A stretch of 64,000 nucleotides of DNA from an uncultured bacterium. Lineage in GTDB: Bacteria; Armatimonadota; Abditibacteriia; Abditibacteriales; Abditibacteriaceae. Positions 1,733 through 63,576 of the stretch are shown here, piece by piece (the first letter of the stretch is position 1; each line of letters opens with the position of its first letter). The translations under genes and the position numbers were made by a program. The notes under the pieces are model-generated. The model did no database searches. It worked only from the letters and a program-made list of their open reading frames with translations, and had not been told where the DNA came from. The DNA lies in contig CAWJLW010000006.1 of assembly GCA_963843795.1 (NCBI GenBank), positions 1,364,001 to 1,428,000 on the forward strand. Direction: 5' to 3'.

Positions 1733-1822
1733 ATCTGCGCTAAAAGCACCAGAAAATTTAACAAATTCCTCTGCAGTGCGCAAGTTCTATGTGCAAGTAC
1801 TTGCACATAGAACTTAATCGTT

Positions 1823-3973
1823 TTACGAGTTCTGCGCTTGACCTTGCTTGGCCGATTTTGACACGATTTGCATGAAATCGGCGTTGGTTTTGGTATTACG
1901 CAAACGGTCGATGAGAAGGGTAATTGACTTGTCGTTGTCCAAGTTTGCCAGCGTGCGACGTAGGTGATACACCGCCGTCAAATCGTCTTTGCTCATCAGC
2001 AAATCGTCGCGACGTGTGCCGCTGCGGTTGATGTCGATGGCAGGGAAAATGCGCTGGTCGAACAGACTGCGATCCAAGACCAAATCCAAATTGCCCGTAC
2101 CCTTGAATTCCTCGAAAATATACTCGTCCATGCGGCTTCCGGTATCCACCAAAGCCGTTGCCAAAATTGTCAAACTGCCACCTTCTTCGATGTTGCGCGC
2201 CGCACCAAACATCTTTTTCGGCTTGTGCATCGCGGCAGGATCAAGTCCGCCCGACATCGTGCGCCCCGAAGTCGGGACGACAAGGTTAGAAGCGCGCGAT
2301 AAACGCGTAATCGAGTCGAGCAGAATGACTACATCGTGTTTTTGTTCGGCCAAACGTTTGGCCCGTTCCATCACCATTTCTGCTACGCGCATATGGTTTT
2401 CGGCAGTTTCATCGAAAGTCGAAGCCACGACTTCGCCGCGCACGCTGCGCGAAATATCGGTCACTTCTTCGGGACGTTCGTCAATCAACAGCACGATCAG
2501 AATCGCTTCGGGATGATTGCGCGAAATCGAGTTGGCGATGCTTTTAATCAGTGTTGTTTTGCCGGCTTTGGGCGGTGCGACGATCAAGCCGCGTTGACCT
2601 TTGCCGATGGGTGAAACCAGTTCGATAATGCGTGCGGTAATGTTCGATTGCTCGGTTTCCAGATTCCACTTTTCTTCGGGGAAAATTGGCGTTAACTTCT
2701 CGAAGTCCTTGCGCGTTTTCATGTTGTCCGGTGGTTCACCGTTAATCGACTCGACGCGCAGCAAGCCGTAATGGCGCTCGGCGTCTTTGGGTGAACGCGC
2801 CTGACCTGCGACCATATCGCCGGTTTTTAGATTAAAACGTTTGATTTGCGATGACGAAACGTACACATCTCCGTCACCTGCGAGATATCCATTGACGCGC
2901 AAAAAGCCGCGACTGTCAGGCAGAATTTCTAACACGCCTCGTTTGTAAGTGAAGCCCTGAGCAGCTGCCTGCGCTTCCAACAAGCGAGTAATCAATTGGC
3001 TTTTTTCCAATTCGGGCGCGGTTTCCACGTTCAGTTCAGAAGCCAGTAAAGTTAGTTCTTCTGGGCTCTTGCCCTCGAGTGCGACCAGATCGTAATCGGG
3101 CCGCGCGCGTTGCGCTTCGCGCTCGTAACGATCCATGCCACGATTCTCGTTGCCGCCACGATTCTCGTTACCACCACGATTCTCGTTGCGATTACCACGA
3201 TTATCGTTGCGATTGCCACGATTGTCGTTGCGGTTGCCCCGAACTTCGTTGCGATTATCGTTGCTGCGATTATCGTTGCGCTGGTTATCATTACGGTTGT
3301 TGCCGCGCGCGTTGTCGTTCCGTCCATGATCATTGCGCGCGGTTTCGTTGCGACCTTCGCGGCCTCGAAAGCGTAACACGCGACCTTCGCCACGCGCGTT
3401 ATCGCTGCGACCGTCACCCCGATTCTCGGCGCGCGAATTATCGCTGTCGCGGGCTTCGTCGCTCTCGGATTCTCTATGGCCCGATTCTCTATTGCGCGGC
3501 TCTTCGCTGCGCGCTTCAGAGTTGTCGGCTGCGACTTGCGCTTCCGCAGCTAATTTTTCGGTGCTGGGAATAGCGTTTTGAGAATGGTTTGCTGGCGAAT
3601 TTTCTGCTTCAGAGCTGGGTGCGTGGGCGTTGCCGTTTTGCGAATCGTCTTTGTCTGCCGTGCCAAATTCCAGCGCAGGTTGTGAACGGCTGTCAGCGTC
3701 GCTGTTGGTTTCGTCGTTTGGATTTGCCGCGTCTTTTTTCGTGCGCGTGGTTTTGGCGCGCGGATTTTTGGGCGCAGTGTCTTTTTTGGCACGCGCAGTT
3801 TTGGCAGTTGCTGTTTTCGTCGTTGCAGATTTGGTTGTTTTTGCCGCCGCTTTGCGGCGCGTCGGGGCGGCAGCCTCCTCGGTAGCGCTGACAGGCGCAT
3901 CGGCAGCAGGCGCAACGGCGACGGGCGCTTCGGTTAAAGACGGTGTTTCGGAAACGTTCACAGCATCATTCAT
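1823..3973 (-). CDS. rho: Transcription termination factor Rho with long low-complexity N-terminal extension
   Basis: PIGKGQRGLIVAPPKAGKT, LIDERPEEVTD, DSITRL, EEFKGTGN, FPAIDINRSGTRRD; ATG at 3973 chosen as start. Confidence 0.97.
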   Translation of the reverse strand: MNDAVNVSETPSLTEAPVAVAPAADAPVSATEEAAAPTRRKAAAKTTKSATTKTATAKTARAKKDTAPKNPRAKTTRTKKDAANPNDETNSDADSRSQPALEFGTADKDDSQNGNAHAPSSEAENSPANHSQNAIPSTEKLAAEAQVAADNSEARSEEPRNRESGHRESESDEARDSDNSRAENRGDGRSDNARGEGRVLRFRGREGRNETARNDHGRNDNARGNNRNDNQRNDNRSNDNRNEVRGNRNDNRGNRNDNRGNRNENRGGNENRGGNENRGMDRYEREAQRARPDYDLVALEGKSPEELTLLASELNVETAPELEKSQLITRLLEAQAAAQGFTYKRGVLEILPDSRGFLRVNGYLAGDGDVYVSSSQIKRFNLKTGDMVAGQARSPKDAERHYGLLRVESINGEPPDNMKTRKDFEKLTPIFPEEKWNLETEQSNITARIIELVSPIGKGQRGLIVAPPKAGKTTLIKSIANSISRNHPEAILIVLLIDERPEEVTDISRSVRGEVVASTFDETAENHMRVAEMVMERAKRLAEQKHDVVILLDSITRLSRASNLVVPTSGRTMSGGLDPAAMHKPKKMFGAARNIEEGGSLTILATALVDTGSRMDEYIFEEFKGTGNLDLVLDRSLFDQRIFPAIDINRSGTRRDDLLMSKDDLTAVYHLRRTLANLDNDKSITLLIDRLRNTKTNADFMQIVSKSAKQGQAQNS

Positions 3974-4109
3974 GACAAAAACCTTTGACAAAAGACGAAC
4001 CACAAAAAATTAAACCAACAAAATGGGAGTGAAAACGGGAATGAAATGAATCAGAAAATTTCGTCCCAACTATCGAATGAAGTGACAGGTCGCAAAGCTA
4101 CAAGAAACA

Positions 4110-4147
4110 GTCGCGCGCACTTGCGTATGTCGCGCGCACTTGCGTAT
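4110..4147. repeat. Perfect 19-bp tandem duplication GTCGCGCGCACTTGCGTAT x2 in the rho upstream region
   Basis: 4110-4128 is identical to 4129-4147. Confidence 0.85.
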
Positions 4148-4502
4148 AGCGGTCTGTTGATGAATTACGACAAAATGAAAAGCGCTGAAAAGGCGCTACA
4201 ATGGTGTGCGCTCTCGACAAAATTCGAGCGCAAATAACTTAACCAAGGCCCTGCAAGTACTTGCAGGGCACGAAGTATTCAATTGGAAATAACGCGCGTC
4301 CGATAACCCAAAAAATTCAACGCACAAGGTACTGATATGAATGGCAAGTACTTGCGGGGTATATCGATTTTGACAAATCACAATTCTGCATCGGTCAGCA
4401 TTTCGCGTGAATGGCGTGGTGCGTTGGTGGCGTTGCGCGAATTTCATCGCACAAGGTTAGGAAGTTTGTGAAACAAAACCCGTATCGGCTGAGGACTTGG
4501 AT

Positions 4503-5488: not shown

Positions 5489-5527
5489 ATTTTGTCCTCG
5501 ATTTATGGGGCAAGTACTTGCCACACA

Positions 5528-7078: not shown

Positions 7079-7196
7079 TTCAATTTGAGAGGGAAGAAAG
7101 AGAGTGTAAGAGGGAAAATTTGGCCAGCAAGTACTTGCAAGGCGTATGGACATTTAACAACTGTTCATTTGTCTCATCTCTTAGCTCTCTCCCTCT

Positions 7197-8528: not shown

Positions 8529-8757
8529 ACCTGATTTCCAAATGCTGTAAATTTTGCGAACTAGTTATGTGGCCTACCACCTGGCACTTTGCGGGAAAAC
8601 GCTTGGGACTTTTGAAAAACACGTTATTGGGTCACGACAGTTAGCGAGATTAATTGATTTTGACATCACTGAGTTGAAATTGTATTGGCTACAATGGCGC
8701 TCTGTTGCAATTTGGCACATTTCGCTAAATGGGCACTGCAAGTACTTGCAGCTCCGT

Positions 8758-11232
8758 TTAGCCCTTGAATCTCAACAAACGCAGCGCGTTTGCCACCACG
8801 ACTAACGTACTTCCTTCGTGGAAAATTACCGCCACGCTTAATTGCGCGAAACCGAACAGTGTCGAAGGAACTAAGAGCGCGATGACCCCGAGCGCGATCC
8901 ACAAATTCTGTCGAATGATCGCGCGCGATTGACGGCTCAGTGCGACCGCGAATGGCAGCCTCGATAAATCATCGCCCATCAGCGCCACATCGGCGGTTTC
9001 TAAGGCCACGTCGGTGCCGCCCGCTCCCATCGCAATACCAACCGTCGCATTCGCCAGTGCGGGCGCGTCGTTGACACCGTCGCCGACCATGGCGACTTGT
9101 CCGTGTTCGGCCAGCAATTCCTTGATGGCTGTGACTTTGTGTTCCGGCAGCAAATCGGCGCGCACATCGGTAACGCCTGCTTTGTCGGCGATGGTTTGGG
9201 CCACGCGCGCGTTGTCGCCGGTCAACATAATCAGGCTCGTGATGCCCAGCGCGCGCAATTGTTGCAGCGAAGCGGGCGTTTCGTTGCGCAGTCCATCGGC
9301 TAAAGCCAGTACGCCAAGTACTTGGGAGCCGCGCCCGATGAGCATAGTCGGCTTGCCACTGTCGCCCAATTGCTGCATTTGGGTTCGCAATTCGTTTGAT
9401 ACGACAATGCTCGCTTCTTCAAACATCCGCAAGTTGCCGATGCGCACGATTTCATTTCCCACGGCGCTTTCCACTCCGCGTCCCTGCAAATTGATGAGTT
9501 CGCCCGTCGTCTCCAACTTTAAATTATCAACCTGCGCGCGTCGCACCACCGCTAAAGCAAGAGGATGATTGGAACGCGTTTCCACGCTTGCCGCGAGCGT
9601 CAGTAATTCAATTTCGCTGATATTGGCAGCGGGCACAATGTCGGAAACTTCGGGCCGTCCACGCGTTAACGTGCCGGTTTTGTCTAATGCGATGGCATTC
9701 AGTTTCCCCAGATTTTCCAGATGTACGCCGCCTTTTATCAAAACACCGTTGCGCGCTGCCTGCCCGATGCCAGCCAAAACTGCTGCTGGAGTGGCCAAGG
9801 CTAATGCGCATGGTGATGCGGCGACCAAGGTTGAAATCGCGCGCAAAAACGCTTCCTTCCAACTTAGCCAACCGGCGATTGGCGGCACAATCGCTGCCAA
9901 AATCACGATGCCTAGAATACAAGGCACGAAGATGCGCTCGAAATTTTCGGCGAAAGTTTGCGTTGGCGATTTCTGGCTTTGCGCTTCTTCGACCATTTGC
10001 ACCACGCGCGCCATCGTGGTGTCTTTGGCCAGCTTTGTCACCGTCACTTCCAACGCGCCATCACCGTTGATGGAACCCGCGAACACATCGTCACCGGATT
10101 CTTTATCGACCGGCACGCTTTCGCCAGTAATCGGGCTTTGATCGAGGGAAGAATGCCCTGTAAGTACTTGCCCTTCCACTGCGACACGATCTCCGGGCCG
10201 AATAATGGCAATATCGCCGATTTGCAATTGTTCTACCGGCACTTCGATTTCCTGATTAGACCCAGAAGGAGTTTCTCGCCGCACGCGCGCCGTTTTCGGC
10301 GTGAGCTTGCCCAAGGCATTAATTGCATTACGCGCCTTTTCCATCGCACCATGTTCCATTGCATGGCCCAGAGAAAAAAGGAAGAGCAGAAATGCGCCTT
10401 CGGCCCATTCTCCCAGCAAAGCCGCGCCGACTGCGCCTGCCAGCATCAGAAAATCCACGTCGAAACGACCGTGTAACATTGAAGGAATCGCATGGCGCGC
10501 CAGGTTATAACCACCTGCTACATAAGCGCCGAGATAACAGGTCAGCGCGATAGGAAACGGTAGGTTTGAAGCGCGGTCAATCACGAAACCCAGCACCAAG
10601 AAAACGCCCGCTAGTAGCGACATGCCCAGCTCACGGTTTCGCGCCCACCAACCGCCGCCCTCTGGGACCTCGTGCGCGTGGTCGTCGTGCTCATCGCGTT
10701 CAACTGTTGGGTGCTCGTGACCTTCATGCTCGCGCGGAGCGACGGTTAGATCGACTGTATTTTGCGATGGCACGCGGTAGCCCAATTTGCCGACGGTTTT
10801 GACGATTTGCGCGCGGTCGGTAAGCGTGGAATCGTATTCGACTTTCATTTTTCCGGTAGGGTAATTCACATTGACGTGCGTCACGCCGGACGCTTTGCCG
10901 ACGATTTGTTCCAGACCCCCCGCGCAACTGGCGCAGTCCATGCCCGCAATCGGCAATGTCTCGTGCTTGAATCGTTGTGTAATAGCTGCGCCTTCATCGC
11001 GCGCCAAACGTTCCAATTTTTCCAGCGTGACCAGATTTGGATCGTAGTGCAAACATAGGTGCGGTTTGCCACGATCTGTGTCTATGTGGGCTTGTTCGAT
11101 TCCGGTTTGTGTGCTGAGAAGAGTTTGTAAGCGCGCGATGCAGCCATCCTGTGCATCATCGACGCCAGGCAGCACAACAGGCAATTCGAGTTGCAACGTT
11201 TGCTGACCGGGTTTGATTTTGTGTTCAGACAT
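8758..11232 (-). CDS. Heavy-metal P1B-type ATPase (ZntA/CadA-like) with HMA domain and His-rich linker
   Basis: GMDCASC, TGES, SPCALAL, DKTGT, HP, GDGVNDAP. Confidence 0.95.
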   Translation of the reverse strand: MSEHKIKPGQQTLQLELPVVLPGVDDAQDGCIARLQTLLSTQTGIEQAHIDTDRGKPHLCLHYDPNLVTLEKLERLARDEGAAITQRFKHETLPIAGMDCASCAGGLEQIVGKASGVTHVNVNYPTGKMKVEYDSTLTDRAQIVKTVGKLGYRVPSQNTVDLTVAPREHEGHEHPTVERDEHDDHAHEVPEGGGWWARNRELGMSLLAGVFLVLGFVIDRASNLPFPIALTCYLGAYVAGGYNLARHAIPSMLHGRFDVDFLMLAGAVGAALLGEWAEGAFLLFLFSLGHAMEHGAMEKARNAINALGKLTPKTARVRRETPSGSNQEIEVPVEQLQIGDIAIIRPGDRVAVEGQVLTGHSSLDQSPITGESVPVDKESGDDVFAGSINGDGALEVTVTKLAKDTTMARVVQMVEEAQSQKSPTQTFAENFERIFVPCILGIVILAAIVPPIAGWLSWKEAFLRAISTLVAASPCALALATPAAVLAGIGQAARNGVLIKGGVHLENLGKLNAIALDKTGTLTRGRPEVSDIVPAANISEIELLTLAASVETRSNHPLALAVVRRAQVDNLKLETTGELINLQGRGVESAVGNEIVRIGNLRMFEEASIVVSNELRTQMQQLGDSGKPTMLIGRGSQVLGVLALADGLRNETPASLQQLRALGITSLIMLTGDNARVAQTIADKAGVTDVRADLLPEHKVTAIKELLAEHGQVAMVGDGVNDAPALANATVGIAMGAGGTDVALETADVALMGDDLSRLPFAVALSRQSRAIIRQNLWIALGVIALLVPSTLFGFAQLSVAVIFHEGSTLVVVANALRLLRFKG

Positions 11233-14377: not shown

Positions 14378-14485
14378 ACTGTGTTTATTTTCCTCGCGAT
14401 GAAAGTCAAGCTCGCAAGTACTTGCAGCGCTATAACGCTCCAAAACCAAACGCACCATTTCAGATTCAGATTCAAAGGTTAATTT

Positions 14486-15856: not shown

Positions 15857-15896
15857 CAAAAAAGCGCCCTGCAAGTACTTGCAGGGCGCTTTTTTG
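15857..15896. terminator. 40-bp perfect palindrome centred on the 12-mer; bidirectional terminator-like, between convergent genes
   Basis: CAAAAAAGCGCCCT-GCAAGTACTTGC-AGGGCGCTTTTTTG. Confidence 0.85.
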
Positions 15897-17524: not shown

Positions 17525-17629
17525 CACAGAGAACACGGAGGACACAGAGTTTTTAGGAAAAAGTTCTTCTGCAAGTACTTGCAGGGGAAAATTCTATAAG
17601 AAATTTCTGTGTCCTCCGTGTTCTCTGTG
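17525..17629. repeat. 105-bp element with 24-bp perfect terminal inverted repeats and the 12-mer palindrome inside
   Basis: CACAGAGAACACGGAGGACACAGA (17525-17548) and TCTGTGTCCTCCGTGTTCTCTGTG (17606-17629). Confidence 0.85.
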
Positions 17630-17649
17630 GTTTATTAAAAGTCTGAAAT

Positions 17650-18636: not shown

Positions 18637-18725
18637 ATCTCGTTCAATGCGCCTCGCAAGTCCTTGCGAGGCGCATTTTGTGGAAAAGTAAGCGGGACGA
18701 AAAATTTTGTGGTGGGGAGTTATCT

Positions 18726-20258: not shown

Positions 20259-20315
20259 TCTTGAAAACAAAAAATAAGCGCTGCAAGTACTTGCAAGGCG
20301 TGATAAACGAAAATT

Positions 20316-23611: not shown

Positions 23612-23857
23612 GACAATCGTTGGCTCAGCTCCGCCTGAACTCTCGCAAGTACCTGCAACGCATTTGGAAACTTCCTCCCGAGTTTATGAATAATCATGCA
23701 GCAAGTGACCTTAATAACGCCCCTCAACAACCATTTTCATATAATCCGGCACTGAACTCTCGGGAAAGAGAAAACCACTCAAAGCTCAAAATTAACGCCC
23801 GCAAGTACTTGCAAGTACTTGCGGGCGTTGTTTAGCATTCACTGGAAATTGAAATGC

Positions 23858-26338: not shown

Positions 26339-26361
26339 AGTGCAAGTACTTGCAGTGTGCT

Positions 26362-26604: not shown

Positions 26605-26690
26605 GAAAAATTTCCTTTGCGGGTTGAAAAACGAGTCGGCAAAAAGCGCTGCAAGTACTTGCGGGCACTTGCGATTATACTTTCAAATCT

Positions 26691-28019: not shown

Positions 28020-28078
28020 CGCTGCAAGTACTTGCAGCGCTGTTTAATCTCATCAAACTCAAAAACTCACAAATAATT

Positions 28079-29493: not shown

Positions 29494-29526
29494 AAACGCG
29501 GTGCAAGTACTTGCACCGCGTTTTTT
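29494..29526 (+). terminator. Terminator after trmFO built on the 12-mer
   Basis: AAACGCGGT-GCAAGTACTTGC-ACCGCGTTT followed by a T-tract. Confidence 0.8.
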
Positions 29527-30417: not shown

Positions 30418-30676
30418 CCGCAGCCTGAACTATAAAACGTGCTGAGCGCGTGGCAAGTACTTGCCGCTAATAATTGCCACGCTCGCTTAATTTTTATGAA
30501 GACACATAATATTTTTCAGATAAAAGAATCAATGTTAGAAGAATTGTAAAAGTAAATTTAGACAAAAAATATGTTGACTATTATTCACAAAAATTAGAAA
30601 AAATAGTTTATAATAGCTTCAAATCGCATTTGAATGAATTTGCGAGTTTTGTCACTATCTGCTGAGTGGAGGGCGT

Positions 30677-36859: not shown

Positions 36860-37209
36860 AGCGTTCTCGAAACACACGGCAAGTACTCTGCAGGTAGCAG
36901 TTCGGCCCGCAAGTACTTGCTCCACATTTAAGACACAAATTTCTCTGGAAAACAGTTCTTAGAAGAGATTATTTGTTCAAGATGCCTTTGAAATTCCGAA
37001 GAAAACTGAAAATCTCTTTTCCGGTGAATCACGTTAATGGGCACCGCTAAAAAGCGGCTTTGAGGAGGATTCTGTTTTGAGCTTATCCGATCAGTAACTT
37101 TAAGTGTCAAAAGACTGCTGTCAGTGGACATTTGCTGGGGCTACGTTTGGCGGAAAAGTTGGCCCTGAAGCCTTATGAACTTGAATGTTGACATGGGAGG
37201 CGAAAAAGT

Positions 37210-40200
37210 ATGTTTATGGAGAAAGCGCGCGGTGTTGACCGCGCAAAACCCGTTGGGCGAAACGTTTCAGCGCTGTGCTTTGCGGTGATAGGAGCTGCGA
37301 TTTTGGGGGCGCCAAGTGTGCACGCGGCGACTTTCACTGTCGCCAACAACAACGATAGCGGCGATGGCTCGCTGCGCGCTGCGGTCACGCAGGCTAACGC
37401 GACTGCGGGCGCTGATACGATTGGGTTCGCTTCGAGTGTCGGCAATCCGATTTTGTTGAAAAGTGCGCTGCCGACTTTGAGCGGTGCGCTGATCATCAGC
37501 GGGCCGGGCGTGAGAAATTTGAGTGTCGCGCGCGATAGCACGACGCAATTTCGGATTTTTACCACCGCGACGGACAGCACCGTGACGATTGCGGGCTTGA
37601 ATATCGTGGGCGGCGATGTCAGTGCTCTGGACAGCGAAGATAACTTGGTTGATTCGAGTTTGGGCGGCAATATCTTGAATTTGGGCACGCTAACGATTCG
37701 CGAATGTACGGTGTTTCGCGGCAAAGCTTCTTCGGGTGGCGGCGTTTTGAATAACGGCGGCACCTTGAATATCATTAGTTCGAGTATCACCGGCAACGAT
37801 AGCACCGCCGATGGCACCGGGGCTGGGGTGGCCAATGCCGGAACTTTGAACATCACCAACAGCAGCATCACCAACAACGATGCCGTGGATGATGGCGGTG
37901 GCATTTTTCATCTCACTGGCACGATGACAATTGAAAACTCGACAATCAGCGGCAACGAGTGTGTTTCCGGCGGCGGTGGGATTATTACCGGCGGCAGCGA
38001 TGCTCCGGCTTCTCAACTGGTGGCGCGCATTTCCAATAGCGTAATCAGCAACAACAAATCGTACAACAGCGCTGGCGGCATCGACATCAGCGATGGTAGC
38101 ATGACTATCACTAACACTACTTTCAGTGGCAACACGGCGGGCAGTACGGATGGTGTGAACCGTGGTTCGGGTGGCGCTATCTTTAACCGGCGCGCTACTT
38201 TGACAATTACCGGCAGCACCTTCAGCGCCAACAGCGCCAATAACGGCGGCGCCATCAGCAACAGCGTGGGCGCGTTGACCATCACCAACAGCACTTTCAG
38301 CGGCAACAGCGCCAATTCGGGCGCGGCGATTGGTGGCGGCGACGGGGCGATTACGATTGCCAGTTCGACGATCACTCTCAATAAATCGGGCGTCGGTGCC
38401 GGTATTTTTGGCAGAGCGCGCCTCAGCAATAGCATCGTATCCGGCAATGATGGCCCCGATGTGCAGGGCGCTTCCACCAGTGGCGGCTACAACCTGATTG
38501 GCAATGTCCGCGATGGCGCCACTTTTACCGCGACCGGTGACCGCACGGGCATCAGCGATCCTAAACTCGGCCCCTTGGCTGATAACGGTGGCCCGACTTT
38601 CACTCATCTGCCACAAGCCGGAAGTCCGGCGATTGATGCAGGCGATACGCCATTGACCGCCGATCAGCGCGGTCAGTCGCGGCCCAAAGGCACGCGCGAT
38701 GACATCGGCGCGGTCGAAAGCGGCGCGACGGCTTCGGGCTCGGTTCTCTCGATTGCTAATGCCGGCGCGGTTAAAGAAGGCAACATCGTCAGCGGCGTGG
38801 CGAAATTTGTCGTCACGTTGACGCCAGCGGCAACGGCTGAAGTGCGCGTGGGTTACCGCGCGCAGAACGGCACGGCGATTGAAGACCAAGATTTCGCCAA
38901 GATTCCGGCCAACGCGCAAATCGTGTTTGCTCCGGGCGAAACCAGCAAAACCATCGAAGTGCGTATCGTGGCCGACGACATCGTCGAACCCAATGAAACC
39001 TTTGCGATTCAACTCATCACACCGCAAAACGCCACCATCAACCCGCAGGCGGCGACCGGCACGGCAACTATTGTCGATGATGACACAGCGGCGCTGACCT
39101 TGAGCATTATCCCGGGCACTTTCAGCGAAGCTGCAGGCGCGACTGCCGCGCGCGGCGTCGTTTCGCGCAACAGTTCGACAACTGCTGCTCTGACGGTGAA
39201 TTTGAGCAGCAATAACACGGCGAAAGTCACTGTTCCCGCGACGGTAACAATTCCTGCCGGACAAACTTCGGCGAACTTCAATCTCAGCGCAGTCGATAAC
39301 ACGATTGTCGATGGCTCGAAAGTCGTCGCTATTGGCGCGACCAGCACTGGTTTTGAAGCGGCGAGCATTAATGTTACGGTGACGGATAATGATTCGACCA
39401 CGCCAACTCCAACTCCAACTTCGATTCCAACCCCGAACCAACCGCCGGTCGCGCAAAACCAGAGCATTTCGACCAAAGCGGGCATACCACGGGCGATTAC
39501 GCTTGGCGCGACTGATGCTAACAACGATGTGCTCACGTTCAGCCTCGTAACGCAACCCGCCAACGGCACACTTTCGGGCAACGGCGCGAATGTGACTTAC
39601 ACGCCCAAAGCTGGCTTTGCGGGAACCGATTCGTTCACCTTCAAGGCCAACGATGGCCAAGCCGATTCCAACATCGCTACGATTACGGTGCAAGTACTTG
39701 CAGACAGTCCGCCGCCAACAAATCAAAAAGTTCAAGCCGTCAATGACAGCTACAATTTGATTCTCGGACGCGGCGGCCAGGCCCAGAACGCTGGCGTGGC
39801 TTTGTGGAACGATGATATTTTTCGCATTGCAGCACGCGGCGTTTTGGCTAATGACCGCGCTTTGCCGGGCCGACGTTTATCGGCGCGTTTAACGCGCGGG
39901 CCGCAAAACGGTCGCCTGCAGTTCAACGCTGATGGCAGCTTCGATTATCAACCGAGCAGTGGCTTCGCTGGCACGGACGAGTTCAGTTATACGCTTAGCG
40001 ACGGACAAAACACCGATACTGCGCGCGTGCGCTTGATCATCTTGGATCGGCGCGCCCCGCAACTGCGCTTTGATACGCCGCGCGATAGCGCGACTGTAAG
40101 TGCAGTAAACGCGATTGATGGCCGCGTGCGCGACCGCGAGTCGGGTGTGAAAGCGGTGTCGGTTTTGTGGCGCCGCGAAGCCGATGGCGCGTTCTGGAAC

Positions 40201-40710: not shown

Positions 40711-41074
40711 AAGACTTTCGCAAACGCGCGGCAAGTACTTGCCGACCATCTCTCTGATTTGAATTGAGGGTATCAACGCCCCGCAAGTACTTGCGGGGCG
40801 TTGATCTGGCGAGTTTCGGCTCCTGACGACAAAAACTTTGACCATACCGAATGCGACAATTCTTTGTCATGAATGGAGGTTATAATAACGCCGTGCCAGT
40901 GCTGATATGTTGGAATTGAGCTTGTAATAAATTACCTTTTTTATTTATAAATGAAAGCGCTTCTGGTTTCAAAATGGCGTTGTTGAATGCGCGCTGACAT
41001 TTGTCGGATCAAGACATGGAGTCTGTTTGAGCGAAATTTAGCCGGAAGTATAAGTTTGTGGCGGGAGATAATTC

Positions 41075-41844: not shown

Positions 41845-41884
41845 GTTGGTTGTGCGCTGCAAGTACTTGCAGCGCACAACCAAC
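41845..41884. repeat. 40-bp perfect palindrome centred on the 12-mer
   Basis: GTTGGTTGTGCGCT-GCAAGTACTTGC-AGCGCACAACCAAC. Confidence 0.9.
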
Positions 41885-45730: not shown

Positions 45731-45778
45731 AGACTCAAAGAGCGCGCTGCAAGTACTTGCAGCGCGCTCTTTGAGTCT
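45731..45778. repeat. 48-bp perfect palindrome centred on the 12-mer, between convergent genes
   Basis: AGACTCAAAGAGCGCGCT-GCAAGTACTTGC-AGCGCGCTCTTTGAGTCT. Confidence 0.92.
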
Positions 45779-45786
45779 GAAATGGC

Positions 45787-47170
45787 TTACCTTTTCTGCG
45801 CCGCCAAAAATTCTTTTGCCACGCTTTTAAACCGGTCGCGCCCTTCATCCAAATCAATTATCGGCTTTGCATAGTCTGGCGGCGGCGTTTCCATCAAGTG
45901 TGGGCAATGCACCCATTCATCCGGCACATCGCGCAATTCGGGAATCCAGCGTCGCAAGTACTTGCCCTGAGGGTCGCGCTTCTGTGCCTGCGAAACCGGA
46001 TTGAAGATGCGAAAATAGGGCGCGGCGTCGACGCCACTTCCGGCAATCCACTGCCAATTCCCAACGTTTTGCGCGCGGTCGCCGCACAATAGCAATCCGC
46101 GAAACATCTCCTCGCCGTCGCGCCAATCGATCAACAAATGTTTGCACAGAAAAGAAGCCGCCGCCATGCGCACGTTATTATGCATAAAACCGGTCGCTTG
46201 TAATTCGCGCATTCCCGCATCGACGTATGGATAGCCAGTTTGCCCGTGCGCCCACAAATCCAGCTGCTTTTGGTCATGGCGCCATGGAAAACCGCGCCAA
46301 TTTTCGCGCGCTTCGTTGTGCGCACTTTCCGGTACGCGATCCATCACATCGGCGAAAAAATCCCACCATGTTAGCTCAAATTTCCATTTGTAGGTCGAAG
46401 CGTGCTGCATCGCCAATCGCGGTGACAAAACCCCAATGTTGAAGTAATACGATAGTTTGGAAGTCGCATCTTCGCGAGCCGGTTCGTTGCGCGTTTTCTG
46501 ATATTCATCTTCGGCGTTTTCGATAAACCAATCCAAACGTGCCCTCGCCGCTTTTTCGCCCGCTTCGGGCAAGGCAATTCCGGCATCGACGTGACGAATT
46601 TCGCCGACTTTAAGTGCATCGTGGCGCGGTAGCGCGGGCATCTTGCGCGGTGTCGGTGCCAATTCGGGAACATCGAGCGTTTGCCATTTCTTGCGATACG
46701 GCGCGAACACGCTGTAACGATTGCCTTCGTTCGTCGTAATCGCGCCCGGCTCGTGCGTATATTGACCGCCGTAAGTGCAAACTTCCACACCCAATTCTTC
46801 CAGCGCGGTCGTCGCCGCTGCATCCCGTTTTTTGCCATATGGCGTATAGTTGCGAATGAAATGCGCGCTTTGAATTGCGTATTTGGAATCTTTCAAGTCG
46901 CGCGCTAATGTGGCAAGTACTCTGCACCGGCTCACCTTCACGCACAATGAGAGTTGCGCCCAATTTGCGATACGATTCACGCAATTGCCTCACATTTTCC
47001 AAAAACCACGCCTGCCGTCGCGGCGTGAGATCGGGCCGCTCAAAAATTTTCGGGTCAATAATCACCAGCGGCACAACCGCCTGGTCGTTGTGTCGTGCGC
47101 GTTCGAGCGCGGCGGCGAGTGCGGGATTGTCGTGAGTGCGGAGATCGTTACGATGCCAGATGAGTTGCAT
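45787..47170 (-). CDS. phrB: Deoxyribodipyrimidine photolyase (class I CPD-like), frameshifted at about 46922
   Basis: N-part WHRNDLRTHDNPAL; C-part TSKLS, TGYPYVDAGMREL, MHNNVRM, NVGNWQW, RIFNP; deleting one base gives a 460-aa ORF. Confidence 0.9.
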
Positions 47171-47227
47171 GCAATGCGCATTGGCAAAGATTGCGCCGAA
47201 GTAATTCGGGCAAGTACTTGCAGCGCT

Positions 47228-50157: not shown

Positions 50158-50197
50158 AAAACGCCCCGCAAGTACTTGCGGGGCGTTTTGTTTTTTT
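50158..50197. terminator. Terminator-like 32-bp palindrome centred on the 12-mer with A/T tracts
   Basis: AAAACGCCCC-GCAAGTACTTGC-GGGGCGTTTT. Confidence 0.75.
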
Positions 50198-50204
50198 AAA
50201 ACAC

Positions 50205-52385: not shown

Positions 52386-52498
52386 AACGCTCGTAAAGTC
52401 GCGCGGAATAAAACGCGGTTGCCAAAAATTCTCTCATAAAATTCATTGCAAGTACTTGTAAAGGCGAATTTATCGACTGTAATGAGGTAAATATCGCT

Positions 52499-54995: not shown

Positions 54996-55039
54996 TCGTT
55001 CCTTGTTGTTTTGAAATCGTGCTGCAAGTACTTGCAGCT

Positions 55040-56146
55040 TTAAACCGCTGCTTTGTCGCGCCCAATCTGCAACGATTGCAGCGGAATGAGCGGCTGATTT
55101 TGATTCAGTGCGCGCAACTGTCCGCACGCGCCCGCGACATCGGCCCCGCGCTGCACACGTTGCGTCACGTTCACGCCCGCGTTTTCCAAGATGCCGCGAA
55201 ATTGCGCCAAATCTTGCGCTCGAGGCGAAACAAACGAATCGCTTTCAAAAGTCGCGTCTGGCACTGCATTCCAGGGAATCAGGTTCACATGACAAGGCCA
55301 ACCCTGACAGAGTTGCGCCAAACGCTTGGCCTGTGCGGGTCGGTCATTAACGCCTCCCAAAACTACATATTCAAACGAAACGCGCCGTCCGGTCGCGCGC
55401 ACATAATCGCGCGCCGACTGGACAATATCTGCGACACCTGTTTTGCGACTGGTTGGAATCAAGCGATGGCGCAGTTCATCATCCGGCGCATGGAGTGAAA
55501 TCGCTAACGTGAGCTGCCATTTGCGCTCGGCCAAACGCGCGATGCCATCCAAAATGCCGACGGTCGAAAGCGTGATGTTGCGCATCGGAATGCCCATTTC
55601 ATCGTGCATCAACTCGATTGTTTTGAACACATTGCGCACATTGAGCAACGGCTCGCCCATGCCCATAAACACGATGTGAGTCGGCACCGTGCGCTGCGCA
55701 TTCGCATCATCGTTTTGATTTTCGCGCATCGCCAAAAGCGGTTGCGCGATGATTTCAGAAACATCTAAATTACGCCGAAAACCACCCAATCCAGTCGCGC
55801 AAAACGCGCACGCCATCGCGCAGCCGGCCTGACTGGAAACGCACACGCTGACGCGGTCGGAGTAGGGCAACCGCACCGTTTCGATGCGCTCGCCATCGTT
55901 CATGCGTAGCAAGTACTTGCACGAACCATCCTGTGATTGATGCCGCTCAATAGTTTCTGGAAAATTGATTTGATGTTTATTTTGGAGCTGCGCGCGCAGT
56001 TCGCCGCTCAAATCGCTCATCTGTGCGAACTTCGTCGCCCCGCGCCGATATAGCCACGCGGCGATTTGGCGTCCACGAAACGGCGCTTGATTCATTTCGC
56101 CCAGCACGCTTTCGAGTTCTGTGGTGTTAAGTCCCAGCAATTGCAT
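55040..56146 (-). CDS. rlmN: Dual-specificity RNA methyltransferase RlmN (radical SAM)
   Basis: CVSSQAGCAMACAFCATG, FMGMGEP, SLHA, NLIP, GACGQL. Confidence 0.96.
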   Translation of the reverse strand: MQLLGLNTTELESVLGEMNQAPFRGRQIAAWLYRRGATKFAQMSDLSGELRAQLQNKHQINFPETIERHQSQDGSCKYLLRMNDGERIETVRLPYSDRVSVCVSSQAGCAMACAFCATGLGGFRRNLDVSEIIAQPLLAMRENQNDDANAQRTVPTHIVFMGMGEPLLNVRNVFKTIELMHDEMGIPMRNITLSTVGILDGIARLAERKWQLTLAISLHAPDDELRHRLIPTSRKTGVADIVQSARDYVRATGRRVSFEYVVLGGVNDRPAQAKRLAQLCQGWPCHVNLIPWNAVPDATFESDSFVSPRAQDLAQFRGILENAGVNVTQRVQRGADVAGACGQLRALNQNQPLIPLQSLQIGRDKAAV

Positions 56147-56327
56147 AGAACGCAGTTTACAACTTCGCCAAAAATCTACTGCGCAAAAAGCGCGCTGCCA
56201 GTACTTGCAGCGCGCTTTTTGCTGGCAGACATTCAGGACACTTTCCTAAAATGCAATTTTCGTAATAAATGCCACACACAACGCTTCCGGTTCCAAAAGT
56301 GATTGCTTGAATTGGTGAGGTCTTCAG

Positions 56328-57779
56328 TCAACGCTTGATCGTTGGCGCTGCGTTCAGGAAATAGGGTGTGTCTACCAATTCCCGATATAAATCAATTTCC
56401 TGCGGCCCGAACGATTTGTCGCCAACGGGCGCGATACCTCCGCCGATGCGGTAATCGGTGTAGGCGTTATCGAACCAGACAATGGTTTCTTTGCCGCCTT
56501 CGATTTTCTTAAGCGGAATCCATTCCGGCTTGGCCAGTTGGAACCACACGATGGCTTTGATTTGCGGAAAATCGCGATCAACAGGCTTCAATAATTTACG
56601 CCCGCTGCGTGCTGCATAGCCTTTGGTGCCGTAAACGCCTTGCATCCAGCCATATTCAGCGTCGTTCCAATAGCCAGTTTTCCATTCGTTGTTGATTAAA
56701 CCGCGCTGCAACTGGCTTAAATCGCTGCGGTAGGAAAGCGTGGCTGAGGTTTCGCAAATCATCATCGGCTTGCGCTTTTGAACGGCAAAAGTTTGATAGA
56801 AATTGACGCTTTCATCTTTCGGCGTTTTCGGGTCGTCCATCATGTCATTGGTGATGCTGTTTGCGAACTGGCCGCCCCATAAATGCGCGCCTGGCATCGG
56901 CATATTGAAGCCGCGTTCGTAAGTGTCCAAACCGACCCAATCGACGACATCATCGCCCGGATAGAATGGTGTGAAAACATCGCGCTGCTTACCACCCAGA
57001 AGTCCGGTATTCGGACACCAGATCAGCGCCGCATTGGGCGCAAACTGCCGGAACATTTTCGCCACATTGCGATAGGCCACTCGATATTTGGCGGCTGTGA
57101 AACCGGTGCCTTCATCGGCATCGCGCTCCAAGTTCTTGTTTTTGTCGGCCCATTCGGCCCACGGATACCACGAGCCGTTCATTTCGTGTGCGAACCGAAT
57201 GAATAACGGTTTATTCCATTGGCCTGCGCCAATCGCGAAACGTTTGGTCGCTTCATAGCATTTGCTGCCCGGCTGCCAATCGTCGACGAATTGAAAAGGA
57301 TTGCCAAAGGGTTCTAGCGTGAGGATTGGCGCCGCGCCGTTGTCATTCGCGGCCTGGGCAAAAGTTTGGGGCGCGAGCCATCCACGCGGGTCGCTGTCCC
57401 ATCGAGGAAAAGTACCATCTTCGGCGGGAAACTGCACGAAACCCATTTGCAGCGCGTGATGCTTGCCACTTTGCGTGTTCCATTCGCGCATCAGACCCGC
57501 AAGTACTTGCGGGCTGCCATTGGCCGCCTGCGCATCGACCGTCACGCCGAGATACGCCCCGTAAGCCGGTTCGTAAGTTTGCTGAAGCAAAGGAGGGATT
57601 TTGGGTGCAACCGGCGCGGTTTTAGACGGCACTTTCTGTGCGTGCGCTTGCACAACCGGCGCGTCGAGAATCGCCGACAAATTCTCCGGCGGCGGAGCGG
57701 GTTCACTCATGCCCCGGATTACAGCGCTGCTGGCCAAACATGGGAGCAAACCGACTAAAATCGCTTTCAAGTAATCCAT
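56328..57779 (-). CDS. GH26-family glycoside hydrolase (exported)
   Basis: IRFAHEMNGSWYPW, YPGDDVVDWVGLD, KPMMICET. Confidence 0.85.
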   Translation of the reverse strand: MDYLKAILVGLLPCLASSAVIRGMSEPAPPPENLSAILDAPVVQAHAQKVPSKTAPVAPKIPPLLQQTYEPAYGAYLGVTVDAQAANGSPQVLAGLMREWNTQSGKHHALQMGFVQFPAEDGTFPRWDSDPRGWLAPQTFAQAANDNGAAPILTLEPFGNPFQFVDDWQPGSKCYEATKRFAIGAGQWNKPLFIRFAHEMNGSWYPWAEWADKNKNLERDADEGTGFTAAKYRVAYRNVAKMFRQFAPNAALIWCPNTGLLGGKQRDVFTPFYPGDDVVDWVGLDTYERGFNMPMPGAHLWGGQFANSITNDMMDDPKTPKDESVNFYQTFAVQKRKPMMICETSATLSYRSDLSQLQRGLINNEWKTGYWNDAEYGWMQGVYGTKGYAARSGRKLLKPVDRDFPQIKAIVWFQLAKPEWIPLKKIEGGKETIVWFDNAYTDYRIGGGIAPVGDKSFGPQEIDLYRELVDTPYFLNAAPTIKR

Positions 57780-59558: not shown

Positions 59559-59663
59559 AATTTCCTTTAATTAAACAACGCGCTTTCCCTGCGCGCCGTT
59601 AAAATTGATTCAAAATTCCGTCTGCAAGTACTTGCAGACGGTTGATCTGTTTGGCTTTTTTGC

Positions 59664-60923: not shown

Positions 60924-60984
60924 TTTGAAAATCAGATTTCCTGCCCTTATCCTCGTCGCAAGTACTTGCAGCGAAGATAAAGCT

Positions 60985-61644
60985 TTAAAACAAGCTCAGG
61001 TTTTCGCTTTCCGGTTCGATGGCCGTCTCGTTCAAGCGCGAGTCGCTGCGAACTTCACTGATGTCGGTGATTTCGCTTTCGGCGATGTCACGCGCGATCA
61101 GTTCTTTCAATTTCAAAATGTCGGCTTCCAGTGTCGGCTGCAGTTGCTGGCGATGCAGTGCGGCAGCGGGATGAAAGAGCGGAATATACAAAATGCCACT
61201 TTTGCGAAAAACTTTGCAGCGCGCCTGCGTAATTTTGAATTGTGGCCCCAACAAACGATGCAAAGCCGGATTACCCAGCGGGCAGATAATTTTCGGCTGT
61301 ACGATGGCAATTTGCGCATCCAGATAATCGCGACACGCTGCGACTTCATCCACCAGTGGTTCGCGGTTTTGCGGCGGACGACATTTCACCACATTGGTAA
61401 TGAAAATATCTTCGCGCGCGATGCCCGCTTTTTCCAAAAGTGAACTAAGAAATGCACCAGCGGGGCCTAAAAATGGTCGTCCCGATTCGTCTTCGCGCGC
61501 GCCTGGCCCTTCGCCAACAAACATTAAACGCGCGTGCGCATTGCCTTCGCCCGGCACCGCGTGCGTGCGCGTCTCGCACAAACGGCATTTGGGGCAGACG
61601 CGAATTTCATCGGCTAATTCTTCCAGCAAGCGCGCGCGATTCAT
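60985..61644 (-). CDS. Uracil-DNA glycosylase family 4
   Basis: CPKCRL, VGEGPG..ED..GRPF, NVVKCRPPQNR, HPAA; ATGA overlap with the dapA stop. Confidence 0.93.
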   Translation of the reverse strand: MNRARLLEELADEIRVCPKCRLCETRTHAVPGEGNAHARLMFVGEGPGAREDESGRPFLGPAGAFLSSLLEKAGIAREDIFITNVVKCRPPQNREPLVDEVAACRDYLDAQIAIVQPKIICPLGNPALHRLLGPQFKITQARCKVFRKSGILYIPLFHPAAALHRQQLQPTLEADILKLKELIARDIAESEITDISEVRSDSRLNETAIEPESENLSLF

Positions 61645-62549
61645 AGTTGCGCCGTTTCCAGAGCGCGTCGCAAATTCTCGCTTTCGGCCGCGCCCGCTTC
61701 CACCAAAGGCAATCGCAAGCCACCGCAATCCAAACCACCAGCTTTCAACGCCGCTTTCAAAGGCGCCGGACTCGGACTTGTGGCAGGAAACAAGGCTTCA
61801 AAAACCGGAAGCAAACGCAGATGCAGTTCTAGAGCGCGCGTCAAATCGCCTTCATTGAATGCCGCTATCATTTCAGAAATTTGCGGCCCGACCAGATGAC
61901 TGGCGACCGAAATTACGCCGCATGCCCCTAAACCTAACATGGGATAGGTATCAGCATCGTTGCCCGAGTAAATCCAGAAATCATCGTCGGTATAAGAACG
62001 GATTTTGGCGATTTGCGTTAAGTCACCGCTGGCTTCTTTGACGCCGATAATGTTGGGAATTTCGGCCAAACGTGCCACAGTTTCGGCTTCCAAATTCCGC
62101 GCGGTGCGAGTCGGCACGTTGTAGAGAATGCACGGCAGTTCGACTGATTTGGCAATCGCGGCGAAATGTTGATATAAACCTTCCTGATTGGGACGGTTGT
62201 AATATGGCACGACGAGTAACAGAGCATCAACGTTTAACTTGGCAGCTTGTTGGGAAAATTCAATGGAAAAGGCGGTTTCGTTATCGCCGGTATTGGCGAT
62301 GACGGGAATCTCGACCGCGTCTTGAACGGCGCGATATAAATCGAGTTTTTCGTCCGGCGTGAGCGTCGGGCTTTCTCCGGTTGTGCCGGTGATGACAAGC
62401 CCGGTCGTGCCATTTTCGACCAGATGGCGCGCCAATTCCTGAGCGCGATTCATATCGAGGTTTTGCTGTGCATCAAAGGGCGTCACCATCGCGGTCACGA
62501 CGGGGCCAAAAGGCGGCGCTGGAGTGGGAATGTTCATAATCGTATTCAA
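61641..62549 (-). CDS. dapA: 4-hydroxy-tetrahydrodipicolinate synthase
   Basis: TAMVTPF, GTTGES, PYYN, LYNVPTRT, GVKEASG, LRLPL. Confidence 0.95.
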   Translation of the reverse strand: MNTIMNIPTPAPPFGPVVTAMVTPFDAQQNLDMNRAQELARHLVENGTTGLVITGTTGESPTLTPDEKLDLYRAVQDAVEIPVIANTGDNETAFSIEFSQQAAKLNVDALLLVVPYYNRPNQEGLYQHFAAIAKSVELPCILYNVPTRTARNLEAETVARLAEIPNIIGVKEASGDLTQIAKIRSYTDDDFWIYSGNDADTYPMLGLGACGVISVASHLVGPQISEMIAAFNEGDLTRALELHLRLLPVFEALFPATSPSPAPLKAALKAGGLDCGGLRLPLVEAGAAESENLRRALETAQL

Positions 62550-62670
62550 TCAAAGGGTATTTTAACAAACGCGCGGTTTACGCCTCGCGTGGAAAATGCC
62601 CTGCAAGTACTTGCAGGGCATTGGATTGACATCGTTCTTCCTGCGGGCTGCCCGCATCATCAAATGAAAA

Positions 62671-63525
62671 TTAACTAAAAGCTGCTGCGTAATCGTGCGC
62701 GAACTGTTGGAAGCTGCGCGGTGCGACACCCGTGACAGCTTCCACATCGGAAGTCACTTCCGCGCCCGCGTTCTGGCTCCACTGCTCATATTCGCCCAGC
62801 AATCCATCCGCTGTCCATTCGGGAAAATGCACGCTTAACAAAATTGCGCGCATGGCGGCAGGCGGAATATCGATGTAGTGAATGGTGCGACCCAAAACCT
62901 CCGAAAGCGTGTCTGCCATATCCGCGTGCGAGAGCGCCTGTGGGCCGGTGAGGTTGTAGGCCTTATTTTCGTGGCCCACTTGCGTGAAAGCGGCTAAGGC
63001 GACTTTGGCGATGTCGCGCACATCAATTACGCTCACGCGGCCTTCACCAATCGGCGCGTAAATCGCGTTTTGCGCTTTGATGGTCGGGGCGGAACTGAGC
63101 ATGGCTTGCATGAACAAGTTGGGCCGCAAAAAGGTGTATGTGATGCCAGAATTTTTGATGGCTGCTTCAACGATGCCATGATATTGCAAAAAGCGAGTGG
63201 GCGCATCGACATCGGCGCCCAACTGCGAAAGCTTAACGATGTGTTTGACACCAGATTTTTTGGCCTCGCGAACGAAATTGGTTTGCAATTCCGCTGCGTT
63301 TTGAAACGAGGGTGTCAGCAAAAAGGCTTTATCGATGCCCTGCAAAGCAGCGCGTAACGTTTCGGGCTGGTCGAAGTCGCCCGACACGATTTCGATGCCG
63401 GGTAATTTGATGGCGTCAGCTTTTGCAGGATGGCGCACCATCGCACGCGCCGAAATACCTTGTGCGACGAGCAATTTAATCAGTTCTGTGCCGTTGGTGC
63501 CGGTGGCACCGGTGATTAAAATCAT
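62671..63525 (-). CDS. NmrA-like / atypical SDR oxidoreductase
   Basis: ILITGATGTNG, LRPNLFMQ, IDVRDIA, YNLTGPQALS. Confidence 0.9.
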   Translation of the reverse strand: MILITGATGTNGTELIKLLVAQGISARAMVRHPAKADAIKLPGIEIVSGDFDQPETLRAALQGIDKAFLLTPSFQNAAELQTNFVREAKKSGVKHIVKLSQLGADVDAPTRFLQYHGIVEAAIKNSGITYTFLRPNLFMQAMLSSAPTIKAQNAIYAPIGEGRVSVIDVRDIAKVALAAFTQVGHENKAYNLTGPQALSHADMADTLSEVLGRTIHYIDIPPAAMRAILLSVHFPEWTADGLLGEYEQWSQNAGAEVTSDVEAVTGVAPRSFQQFAHDYAAAFS

Positions 63526-63576
63526 CAGAGTTTCCTTGTTTGAAGCGGCAAGTACTTGCCGCGCGTATTTGCGACG

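Follow-up and report, generated by a model that had tools for sequence, protein, structure and literature searches.

A hyper-abundant 12-bp palindrome in Abditibacteriaceae as a candidate DNA-uptake-type self-recognition word

We found that a genome placed in the Abditibacteriaceae is filled with one 12-bp palindrome, present in 2,567 exact copies over 4.3 Mb where 0.45 are expected, together with 505 one-off variants against about 10 expected. The palindrome may be the lineage's DNA-uptake-type self-recognition word, kept under molecular drive like the DUS of Neisseria and the USS of Haemophilus, a reading to which we give a probability of about 0.5. The DUS side is favoured by the dialects of the word among relatives, by a dialect whose non-palindromic copies pair to form terminators, by even spacing and by absence from foreign islands. 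Enrichment confined to the 64-kb stretch of DNA from which the analysis started (the window), set beforehand as refuting by the original prediction, is ruled out by the genome-wide copies.

An exact count in the window gave 36 perfect copies from 1793 to 63559 (shuffled sequences: mean 0.01, largest 1), the number first reported, and our own gene calls agreed with its division into 29 spacer and 7 genic copies, the former being 26 tandem, 2 convergent and 1 divergent. The accompanying figure of about 12 one-off variants was right as a total and wrong as a label, since 5 have one mismatch (10160..10171, 18656..18667, 23645..23656, 52448..52459 and 56197..56208) and 7 have two. Perfect palindromic arms of 11-24 bp extend 11 of the 36 copies. 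Between convergent genes, the core at 15871..15882 centres a bidirectional terminator-like hairpin with 20-bp arms and a GUAC loop (computed fold -31.6 kcal/mol, z -8.0), and that at 45749..45760 has perfect arms of 24 bp; further terminator-like hairpins are centred on 29503..29514 (15-bp arms, T tract) and 50168..50179 (16-bp arms). Tandem spacers hold a copy with 17-bp perfect arms after an rpoD-like gene (1793..1804), copies with arms of 11 bp (4253..4264), 12 bp (59624..59635) and 14 bp (62603..62614), and the cores at 4344..4355, 8738..8749, 14414..14425, 17571..17582, 20283..20294, 26342..26353, 30453..30464, 36909..36920, 47210..47221, 55024..55035, 60958..60969 and 63548..63559, while the divergent spacer has its core at 26651..26662. 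Other copies lie directly beyond the GMP synthase stop (5510..5521), in the spacer upstream of GMP synthase (7127..7138), 4 bp after a stop codon with 10-bp arms (28024..28035) and upstream of a XerC-like gene with 20-bp arms (41859..41870); two cores overlap, 10 bp apart, at 23801..23822, and a pair 52 bp apart is formed by 40731..40742 and 40783..40794, the second with 17-bp arms. The genic copies are three within one gene of about 2,040 aa (34681..34692, 34756..34767 and 35551..35562), one within a gene of about 1,130 aa (39690..39701), one encoding CKYL on the minus strand (55909..55920), and those at 45954..45965 and 57499..57510.

The flanking sequence is unique to each copy, so the earlier point that the word is not a transposed repeat stands; the flanks are nevertheless not free of conservation, as had been claimed, given the palindromic arms, the CT..AG bases next to the core in 66-68% of half-sites genome-wide, and AT-rich tracts at +13..15 and +24..26 from the dyad, which are helically phased. 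The AT peak at +13..15 is also seen in coding copies (50/64/60% against about 45% in controls), and USS are likewise flanked by AT tracts (PMC7811141). Many of the spacer copies, which make up about 70% of the total, are the centre of terminator-like hairpins that fold well when computed. A copy occupies 278 of the 411 convergent spacers, and T tracts stand on both sides of 142 of 200 long-armed convergent copies. Coding copies are only 30% of the total, and of the 292 copies in convergent spacers 178 have arms of at least 16 bp, so the pattern is partly the work of terminator selection; terminator use is likely a secondary role of the palindrome.

The same spacer bias, T tracts and hairpins would suit a REP- or MITE-like element spread by a transposase, or a mere favoured terminator hairpin core; as sole cause, this very improbable explanation is refuted by the coding substitutions. 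Genic copies number 758 of 2,567, of which 486 have no arm beyond the core; they are biased in reading frame (494/146/118), and among the genome's proteins the peptide QVLA occurs 572 times against 30 for the reversed ALVQ. Where genic copies could be aligned to orthologs, 83 of 94 alignments were without a gap and differed mostly by substitutions, in keeping with the predicted lineage-specific short motif of the HIP1/DUS kind that arises in place. Gaps at copies are above background (11/94 against 1.8%), so these positions are tolerant, as reported for DUS too (PMC2817400). Also against an element or hairpin core, arms of at least 10 bp occur in only 8 of 207 copies in the related genome G009, and neither idea predicts the gap filling described below. 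REP/RAYT systems are insertions outside genes whose ends are of the GTAG type and which come with their own RAYT, and the palindrome is not of this kind: the RAYT link raised originally falls away, as the only RAYT-like gene of the genome has unrelated GTAG repeats of its own. Among 27 repair and replication genes chosen by protein motifs, a set of low power, we found no enrichment (11 copies against 9.2 expected); genome-maintenance enrichment is reported for DUS/USS, with the correlation to function called poor in PMC2817400.

Copies are spaced more evenly than chance (CV 0.75 vs 0.84, with 0/500 randomisations as even), and the same holds for G009 (CV 0.60 vs 0.99, 0/1000) and for the positive control, USS in phage HP1 (CV 0.51, 6/1000); even spacing has been called an expected outcome of uptake drive (PMC7811141, section 30). 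A copy is found in most pieces of native DNA of 1-3 kb, and coding copies fill in wherever spacers are without one: gene ends have 0.13 sites/kb next to a site-bearing spacer, 0.25-0.28 next to a site-free spacer and 0.45-0.47 next to a junction of less than 40 bp. Close pairs peak at 20-21, 29-30, 39-41, 50-51 and 62-63 bp, multiples of about 10.5 bp. After removal of spacers that resemble one another and of gaps shorter than 17 bp (153 of 163 pairs kept), the phasing has a Rayleigh p of about 1.5e-8 at 10.6 bp, the best of 8 periods, and 156 independent perfect-to-variant pairs give p of about 1e-5. The phased AT tracts and the phased pair spacing support that the word is read on duplex DNA.

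A different, rather unlikely explanation is an abundant, palindrome-binding dimeric protein that would bend DNA where the phased AT tracts lie and, to give the nucleoid its structure or to protect DNA, would require one site in every 1-2 kb. The strict 12-bp palindrome, the helically phased close pairs and the gap filling would agree with such an intracellular docking lattice, and HIP1 periodicity has been so read (PMC5861425), although the pair phasing may simply reflect the shared phased AT tracts. It is also in line with phage G041, which carries 37 evenly spaced copies of RTGCAAGYRCTTGCAY in 67.8 kb (CV 0.56, 0/1000). The phage lattice matches that of the source genome in its nearly identical word (the exact 12-mer occurs 20 times in the 67.8 kb), its density and evenness and its coding and spacer copies, and differs in that the central two bases are degenerate (TA/CA/TG) with the outer GTGCA strict, in a GC content of 39%, and in that no common reader was found. 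For the uptake reading, it weighs on the other side that even spacing is also expected of a docking lattice and that a phage with a near-identical one exists. Against the lattice, G006, G009 and G012 contain no ParB paralog beyond the chromosomal one, whose recognition helix is unchanged and whose parS sites, of the ordinary kind, lie at the origin, and the ParB-like protein of the phage was unmatched in 5/5 genomes. No unusual protein is common to phage and source genome, and an inspection by eye of small, basic proteins with typical codon usage gave no candidate. The non-palindromic words carried by G006, G007, G016 and G018, and 17 word-free relatives, are ill-suited to an essential structural role.

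Copy density is flat from origin to terminus, with 53-65 copies per 100 kb across the terminus, and two 26-kb IS/restriction islands have zero copies. Mapped in this way, density shows no drop at the terminus, contrary to the SlmA-type reading originally suggested. Sites such as parS, matS and those of SlmA/Noc are few, and confined to or excluded from the ori/ter regions; a reading of this sort fails on the density across the terminus and on the separate canonical parS at the origin. A signal of the Chi or KOPS type, read by a helicase-nuclease or a translocase, would suit the density and even spacing, and GCTGGTGT within the extended word of G016 equals 7/8 of E. coli Chi as printed in PMC1939737. 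This idea is largely refuted and highly improbable: non-palindromic words have no strand polarity in 100-kb stretches (38 vs 28 in G007, 39 vs 34 in G016), single copies in G006 are unpolarised too, and the RecB/AddAB-type PD-(D/E)XK_1 nuclease domain was found in 0/5 genomes by a search that rang in 11/14 controls.

In 30 relatives the exact 12-mer hardly occurs (0-3 copies each), and absence from related genomes was a refuting outcome named with the original prediction; its claim is kept by other spellings of the word, carried by relatives. Among 27 family genomes, ten bear such a word. The AGTAC core is common to seven of them, with six AGTACT-centred palindromes and the non-palindromic GTACGGTCGA, and the separate word CAGCCACG is found in three. 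The core is kept in the dialects CAAAGTACTTTG (G001), TCGAGTACTCGA (G009, G015 and G038) and CGAGTACTCG (G012), spelling differs within one genus, and the AGTACT type occurs in 0/275 other Armatimonadota genomes. We found no published description of AGTACT-dialect words. In G006, GTACGGTCGA has 1,473 + 1,508 copies, is unpolarised and forms inverted pairs with A/T tails, that is, terminators. Compared by eye and without a statistic, it equals the extended Hin-USS (PMC12616744) at 9/11 core positions, and it deviates in the G of GCGG, the core that is critical for uptake. The three words are absent from 17/27 family genomes, though competence genes are present there. An assembly or library artefact, such as a linker or junction sequence, might be considered since the exact 12-mer is abundant in 1/31 genomes only and pilus genes are frameshifted in the assembly. 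This is refuted, and next to impossible, on the frame bias, the ortholog-aligned substitutions, the islands free of the word and the independent dialects in nine other genomes; moreover, 14 metagenome loci carry a close dialect, CAAGTACTTG, about once in every 800 bp, and homologs of the source genome's proteins are present on 13 of them.

We also considered, as another rather unlikely explanation, a HIP1-type intracellular process, biased by methylation or repair, that would make and keep the palindrome, with an orphan methyltransferase marking GTAC or AGTACT and any gain in transformation lying downstream. The sole N6/N4 methyltransferase of the source genome (C6:2517365-2518135, DPPY beta type, with no neighbouring nuclease seen) is conserved in 21/27 family genomes, among them all seven bearers of an AGTAC-type word, and occurs in 0/4 other genomes of the class. 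GTAC lies inside all seven of these words and is depleted in most family genomes, to 0.00-0.45 of expectation in word-free enzyme carriers, and undepleted (0.86-1.02) in G010, G031 and G037, all without the enzyme; these three are a single clade and therefore not independent. There are precedents in methylated HIP1 and Campylobacter RAATTY, for which a transformation gain is reported (PMC4390886, 10.1101/2024.09.10.611283, PMC10046745). On the other hand, the enzyme's best matches outside the family are at most 36% identical and point to no target site; 14 genomes that lack an AGTAC word, G017 among them, carry it, and it was not found in G016, a CAGCCACG carrier; GTAC is avoided in G013 and G016 despite no enzyme; the source genome has no C5 methyltransferase, unlike the GmeC model for HIP1; and biased repair alone predicts neither gap filling nor phased AT tracts. 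HIP1 (GCGATCGC) and alternative HIPs (PMC4390886, PMC5861425, 10.1101/2024.09.10.611283) are similar in being hyper-abundant palindromes in genes and spacers, with non-random spacing and a lineage orphan methyltransferase. HIP1 is by definition a cyanobacterial word, either GCGATCGC or an alternative centred on GC; here the word is another one, in Abditibacteriaceae, with 12 bp instead of 8, spelling that shifts within a genus, a strong spacer and terminator bias and a putative enzyme-word link. The DNA uptake of Campylobacter jejuni that depends on RAATTY methylation by CtsM (PMC10046745) shares a palindromic R-N4-Y core for self-recognition and an adenine methyltransferase, with a 6-bp site there, and 10-12 strict bases with dialects and putative methylation here.

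Under the DNA-uptake reading, a competence component, the putative receptor, would prefer DNA fragments carrying the word; a two-fold symmetric reader, or one needing methylated GTAC, would suit the palindrome. Uptake and recombination would then drive better matches into each tolerant position, the drive would saturate once a fragment holds one site, giving even spacing, and terminators would be a secondary use. The source genome encodes a type IV pilus (some of its genes are frameshifted in the assembly), ComEA, ComEC, DprA and ComM, with ComEC in 27/27 family genomes and a prepilin peptidase in 25/27. We found no receptor: genomes with and without a word resemble each other in their pilin locus, ComEA and ComEC, none of the pilin features follows the word across the family genomes compared, and a ComP_DUS search matched none of 5/5 genomes, its controls being equally silent. 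Likewise, no cognate reader gene was identified among the pilin, ComEA, ComEC, methyltransferase and ParB candidates examined, and competence genes and orphan methyltransferase do not mark word-bearers, both occurring in word-free relatives too. With the DUS of Neisseriaceae and USS of Pasteurellaceae, as described in PMC7811141, PMC2817400, PMC12616744 and PMC1939737, the word shares a density of about one per 1-2 kb, even spacing, a coding share of about 30% that is biased in frame and enriches a peptide, placement at tolerant positions, a lack of copies in foreign DNA, a core kept across dialects, a secondary terminator role and AT tracts adjoining the core, as well as the USS-like word of G006. 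It differs in belonging to another phylum, in being a perfect palindrome and itself the hairpin centre, in that no ComP/ComN-type receptor or repair-gene enrichment was seen, in that most Abditibacteriaceae genomes are without such a word, and in that competence and uptake bias are here predicted. The known DUS/USS lack palindromic symmetry (PMC1939737), which speaks against the uptake reading; the non-palindromic, unpolarised, terminator-pairing character of this class is found in the G006 word and not in the source palindrome.

With somewhat less than an even chance in our judgement, Abditibacteriaceae would be a further family, outside Proteobacteria, with sequence-specific self-DNA uptake, the code having arisen at least twice (AGTAC-type and CAGCCACG-type), including palindromic words and a palindromic/non-palindromic switch within one genus, with a loss in G017 and, in G006, convergence towards a form resembling that of Haemophilus. 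What makes a single short word accumulate across a genome is a question common to DUS/USS and HIP1, and the tests of gap filling and helical phasing are applicable to both as well. The family is a natural experiment in this respect: its words are palindromic in some genomes and non-palindromic in others, seem to have been gained twice separately and lost once, and are missing from 17 relatives, and one member, Abditibacterium utsteinense, is in culture. If the reader were found, it would become clear whether palindromic words of the HIP kind and those of the DUS kind are a single phenomenon, and the tag required for transforming this little-studied group could come to hand.

We found the 12-bp palindrome GCAAGTACTTGC in 36 exact copies in the window (G000:C6:1364001-1428000), against a mean of 0.01 in shuffled sequence, together with 5 variants carrying one mismatch and 7 carrying two; our own gene calls place 29 of the exact copies in spacers and the other 7 inside genes. 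A protein of this genome, G000, has homologs whose source records call them Abditibacterium utsteinense and Abditibacteriaceae. The word is real, and the high iteration claimed by the original prediction extends to the whole genome, where 2,567 copies are present on 11 of 11 contigs and the runner-up 12-bp palindrome reaches 33. Against an order-4 Markov background from which the sites were masked, the expected numbers are 0.45 for exact copies and about 10 for one-off variants, of which 505 were observed. The genomic copies divide into 758 coding (0.21/kb), 1,237 in tandem spacers (3.0/kb), 292 in convergent spacers (3.9/kb), 266 in divergent spacers (1.9/kb) and 14 at gene or contig edges, counts that carry some error because the 3,558 genes were called with our own hexamer script. 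Repair genes showed no enrichment of the word, and a 16-mer scan of a species-genome collection returned 46 single matches and no second enriched genome.

The coding copies are uneven in their reading frames (QVLA 494, KYL 146, ASTC 118) and the word has reshaped the proteome, QVLA occurring 572 times versus 30 for the reversed ALVQ. Ortholog alignments across coding sites were ungapped in 83 of 94 cases (91 distinct sites), often with amino-acid changes; sites touched gaps in the other 11, compared with a background of 1.8%, and therefore coding sites favour tolerant positions. Among the convergent-spacer copies, 178 of 292 are extended by perfect palindromic arms of at least 16 bp, T tracts lie on both sides of 142 of 200 long-armed convergent copies, and five window copies fold into GUAC-loop hairpins (z -5.0 to -9.4). 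In its extended form the consensus reads CT-core-AG and is accompanied by AT peaks +13 to 15 and +24 to 26 from the dyad; these peaks are present in coding copies also, controls being flat or showing codon periodicity only, and the phased AT signal is slight in the related genome G009. At window positions 17526-17630 a second, unrelated repeat of inverted ACAGAG-type units flanks the copy at 17571.

Word density is flat along the chromosome, with 53-65 copies per 100 kb across the inferred terminus and no departure close to the origin, a region with five canonical parS sites beside parB. The two longest word-free gaps (each 26 kb) are islands in which translations, inspected by eye, show IS elements together with type I restriction genes. 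Sites are more evenly spaced (CV 0.75) than under a null that fixes spacer sites and redistributes coding ones (CV 0.84; 0/500). Coding density climbs with distance from a spacer site: it is 0.08/kb in the nearest 200 bp and 0.52/kb when the spacer site is 2-3 kb away. Once gene position is controlled for, the density next to a spacer with a site is 0.13/kb, next to a spacer without one 0.25-0.28/kb, and next to junctions shorter than 40 bp 0.45-0.47/kb. Evenness is replicated in G009 (0/1000) and weakly in G007 (40/1000), two relatives with words of their own; in a third, G016, spacing is no more even than chance (CV 0.97, 476/1000) and close pairs are numerous. Where two copies stand close together with unrelated spacers between them, their separations are multiples of about 10.5 bp (153 pairs retained out of 163; p about 1.5e-8 for the best of 8 periods); this phasing was replicated with variant partners and may stem from phased AT tracts that the two copies share. 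An intracellular lattice of docking sites accounts for much of the same data and we consider it less likely than an uptake role; no nucleoid protein candidate was seen on inspection by eye, no site clusters indicating a regulator were found, and ParB is ordinary, with no extra paralog in G006, G009 or G012.

The exact 12-mer occurs only 0-3 times in each of 30 relatives, several of which carry dialects of it. RAGTACTY is present in 2,695-4,371 copies in 6 of 27 Abditibacteriaceae genomes and in 0-117 in the other 21, and never exceeds 396 copies among the 275 genomes outside the family in a phylum sample of 301. The spelling is CAAAGTACTTTG in G001, TCGAGTACTCGA in G009, G015 and G038, and CGAGTACTCG in G012. 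A separate word, CAGCCACG, is carried by G007, G016 and G018 (2,676-3,503 copies). G006 carries the non-palindromic GTACGGTCGA (2,981 copies, both strands), with an inverted partner in 180 of 230 sampled matches and a weak second half kept by the singles; its word RAGTACGGTCGAWWT (loci L041, L042, L368-L376) matches 9 of the 11 core positions of the extended Haemophilus USS, counted by eye. A further dialect, CAAGTACTTG, was found in 14 metagenome loci (60-69% GC) among the 80 examined out of 116. Sharing of ancestral sites between dialects did not rise above that of control hexamers (10/135 versus 8-33%). We call a genome word-free on the basis of three patterns searched genome-wide plus de novo motif searches in 6-150 kb of sampled sequence; for G032-G036 the samples were below 11 kb each, so another word there is possible. 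G017 has no word (AGTACT twice in 150 kb) and is nested among word-bearing genomes (0.95) in a single-gene ComEC tree that misplaces G011 on a long branch; a GMP synthase tree was poorly resolved. Single contigs with several copies of another lineage's word were seen in G032 (C98), G034 (C179) and G017 (C1 and C30); these are possibly mis-binned or transferred DNA, and words could therefore serve as binning markers. 'Motifs' from the first samples of G005, G008 and G019 proved to be local tandem repeats, and the GTAG-type repeats of G010 and G007 are separate from the words.

An orphan beta-type DNA methyltransferase (G000:C6:2517365-2518135, L117), a candidate CcrM-like lineage methylase, is kept without synteny in 21 of 27 family genomes, namely all seven AGTAC-type genomes and 14 others; neither its homologs nor 10.64898/2026.06.24.734251 revealed its specificity. 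GTAC and CTAG are strongly avoided across much of the family, dropping to 0.00-0.11 of the expected frequency in the majority of genomes sampled from two genera, g2 and g5 (e.g. L099, L101, L047, L100), with G010, G031 and G037 as exceptions to this near-absence. Creation of the word by a HIP1-type drive of methylation or repair likewise accounts for much of the data, and we also regard it as less likely than an uptake role. The RecB/AddAB-type nuclease domain PD-(D/E)XK_1 was found in none of five genomes (G000, G003, G009, G012, G017), and double-strand breaks may be handled by a different pathway in this family. An origin from RAYT/REP elements was rejected, the lone RAYT-like gene of the genome having its own repeats, unrelated to the palindrome. 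This Y1 transposase gene (G000:C6:751650-752480) is flanked by paired GTAG-type repeats and appears to be disrupted close to its start.

The family as a whole has competence genes (ComEC 27/27, prepilin peptidase 25/27), HhH/ComEA-type genes occur in 30 of 31 relatives, and ComEA is ordinary, with no word-linked peculiarity. A type IV pilus locus (G000:C6:385799-402501, L161) encodes unusually large pilin-like proteins of about 300, 600, 350 and 1,300 aa without Pfam globular domains; eight pilus proteins gave N-methyl/DUF1559-type Pfam matches only. Several of these genes are frameshift-split in the assembly, and G007, G012, G016 and G017 have two copies of the 1,300-aa gene. Among the matches listed, from 20 of 27 family genomes, gene order at the locus is identical with or without the word. 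The genome also encodes 38 prepilin-like proteins, mostly of DUF1559 type, dispersed over the chromosome.

A viral scan found a 67.8-kb phage (G041:C1:1-67844, L361-L364) with terminase, portal, primase and helicase genes, 20 exact 12-mers and 37 evenly spaced copies of RTGCAAGYRCTTGCAY. This lattice is common to fragments G039 and G040 and to related loci L382-L384, L388, L389, L393, L401, L422, L431, L432 and L443; in this tailed phage clade RTGCAAGYRCTTGCAY often occupies the gap from a stop codon to the ribosome-binding site that follows, FolE/QueD-type genes are carried and GCGC is at 0.09 of expectation. Phage HP1 has 17 USS in 32 kb and is therefore a precedent for a phage carrying its host's word. 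We count G041 neither for nor against any reading because its word centre is degenerate and the search for its host gave no assignment (G000 has no detected CRISPR array; capsid matches below 29%).

In full-text literature searches, with most subscription journals outside their scope, no paper contained the 12-mer or joined Abditibacteri- with repeat, palindrom- and genome; they otherwise returned known DUS/USS and HIP1 work or unrelated papers. The word behaves like a DUS and differs in being palindromic and in that no receptor was identified, and we do not class it as one, its uptake role being putative. It originates in place and saturates at roughly one copy every 1-2 kb; it has features of duplex DNA, exists in dialects, is absent from foreign DNA and frequently stands in a hairpin context. 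We infer, with a probability of roughly 0.5, that sequence-biased uptake and recombination drive the word, as described for USS in PMC7811141 and PMC2817400. An uptake step would favour DNA bearing the word, recombination would then push it into tolerant positions, and its use in terminators would have arisen later.
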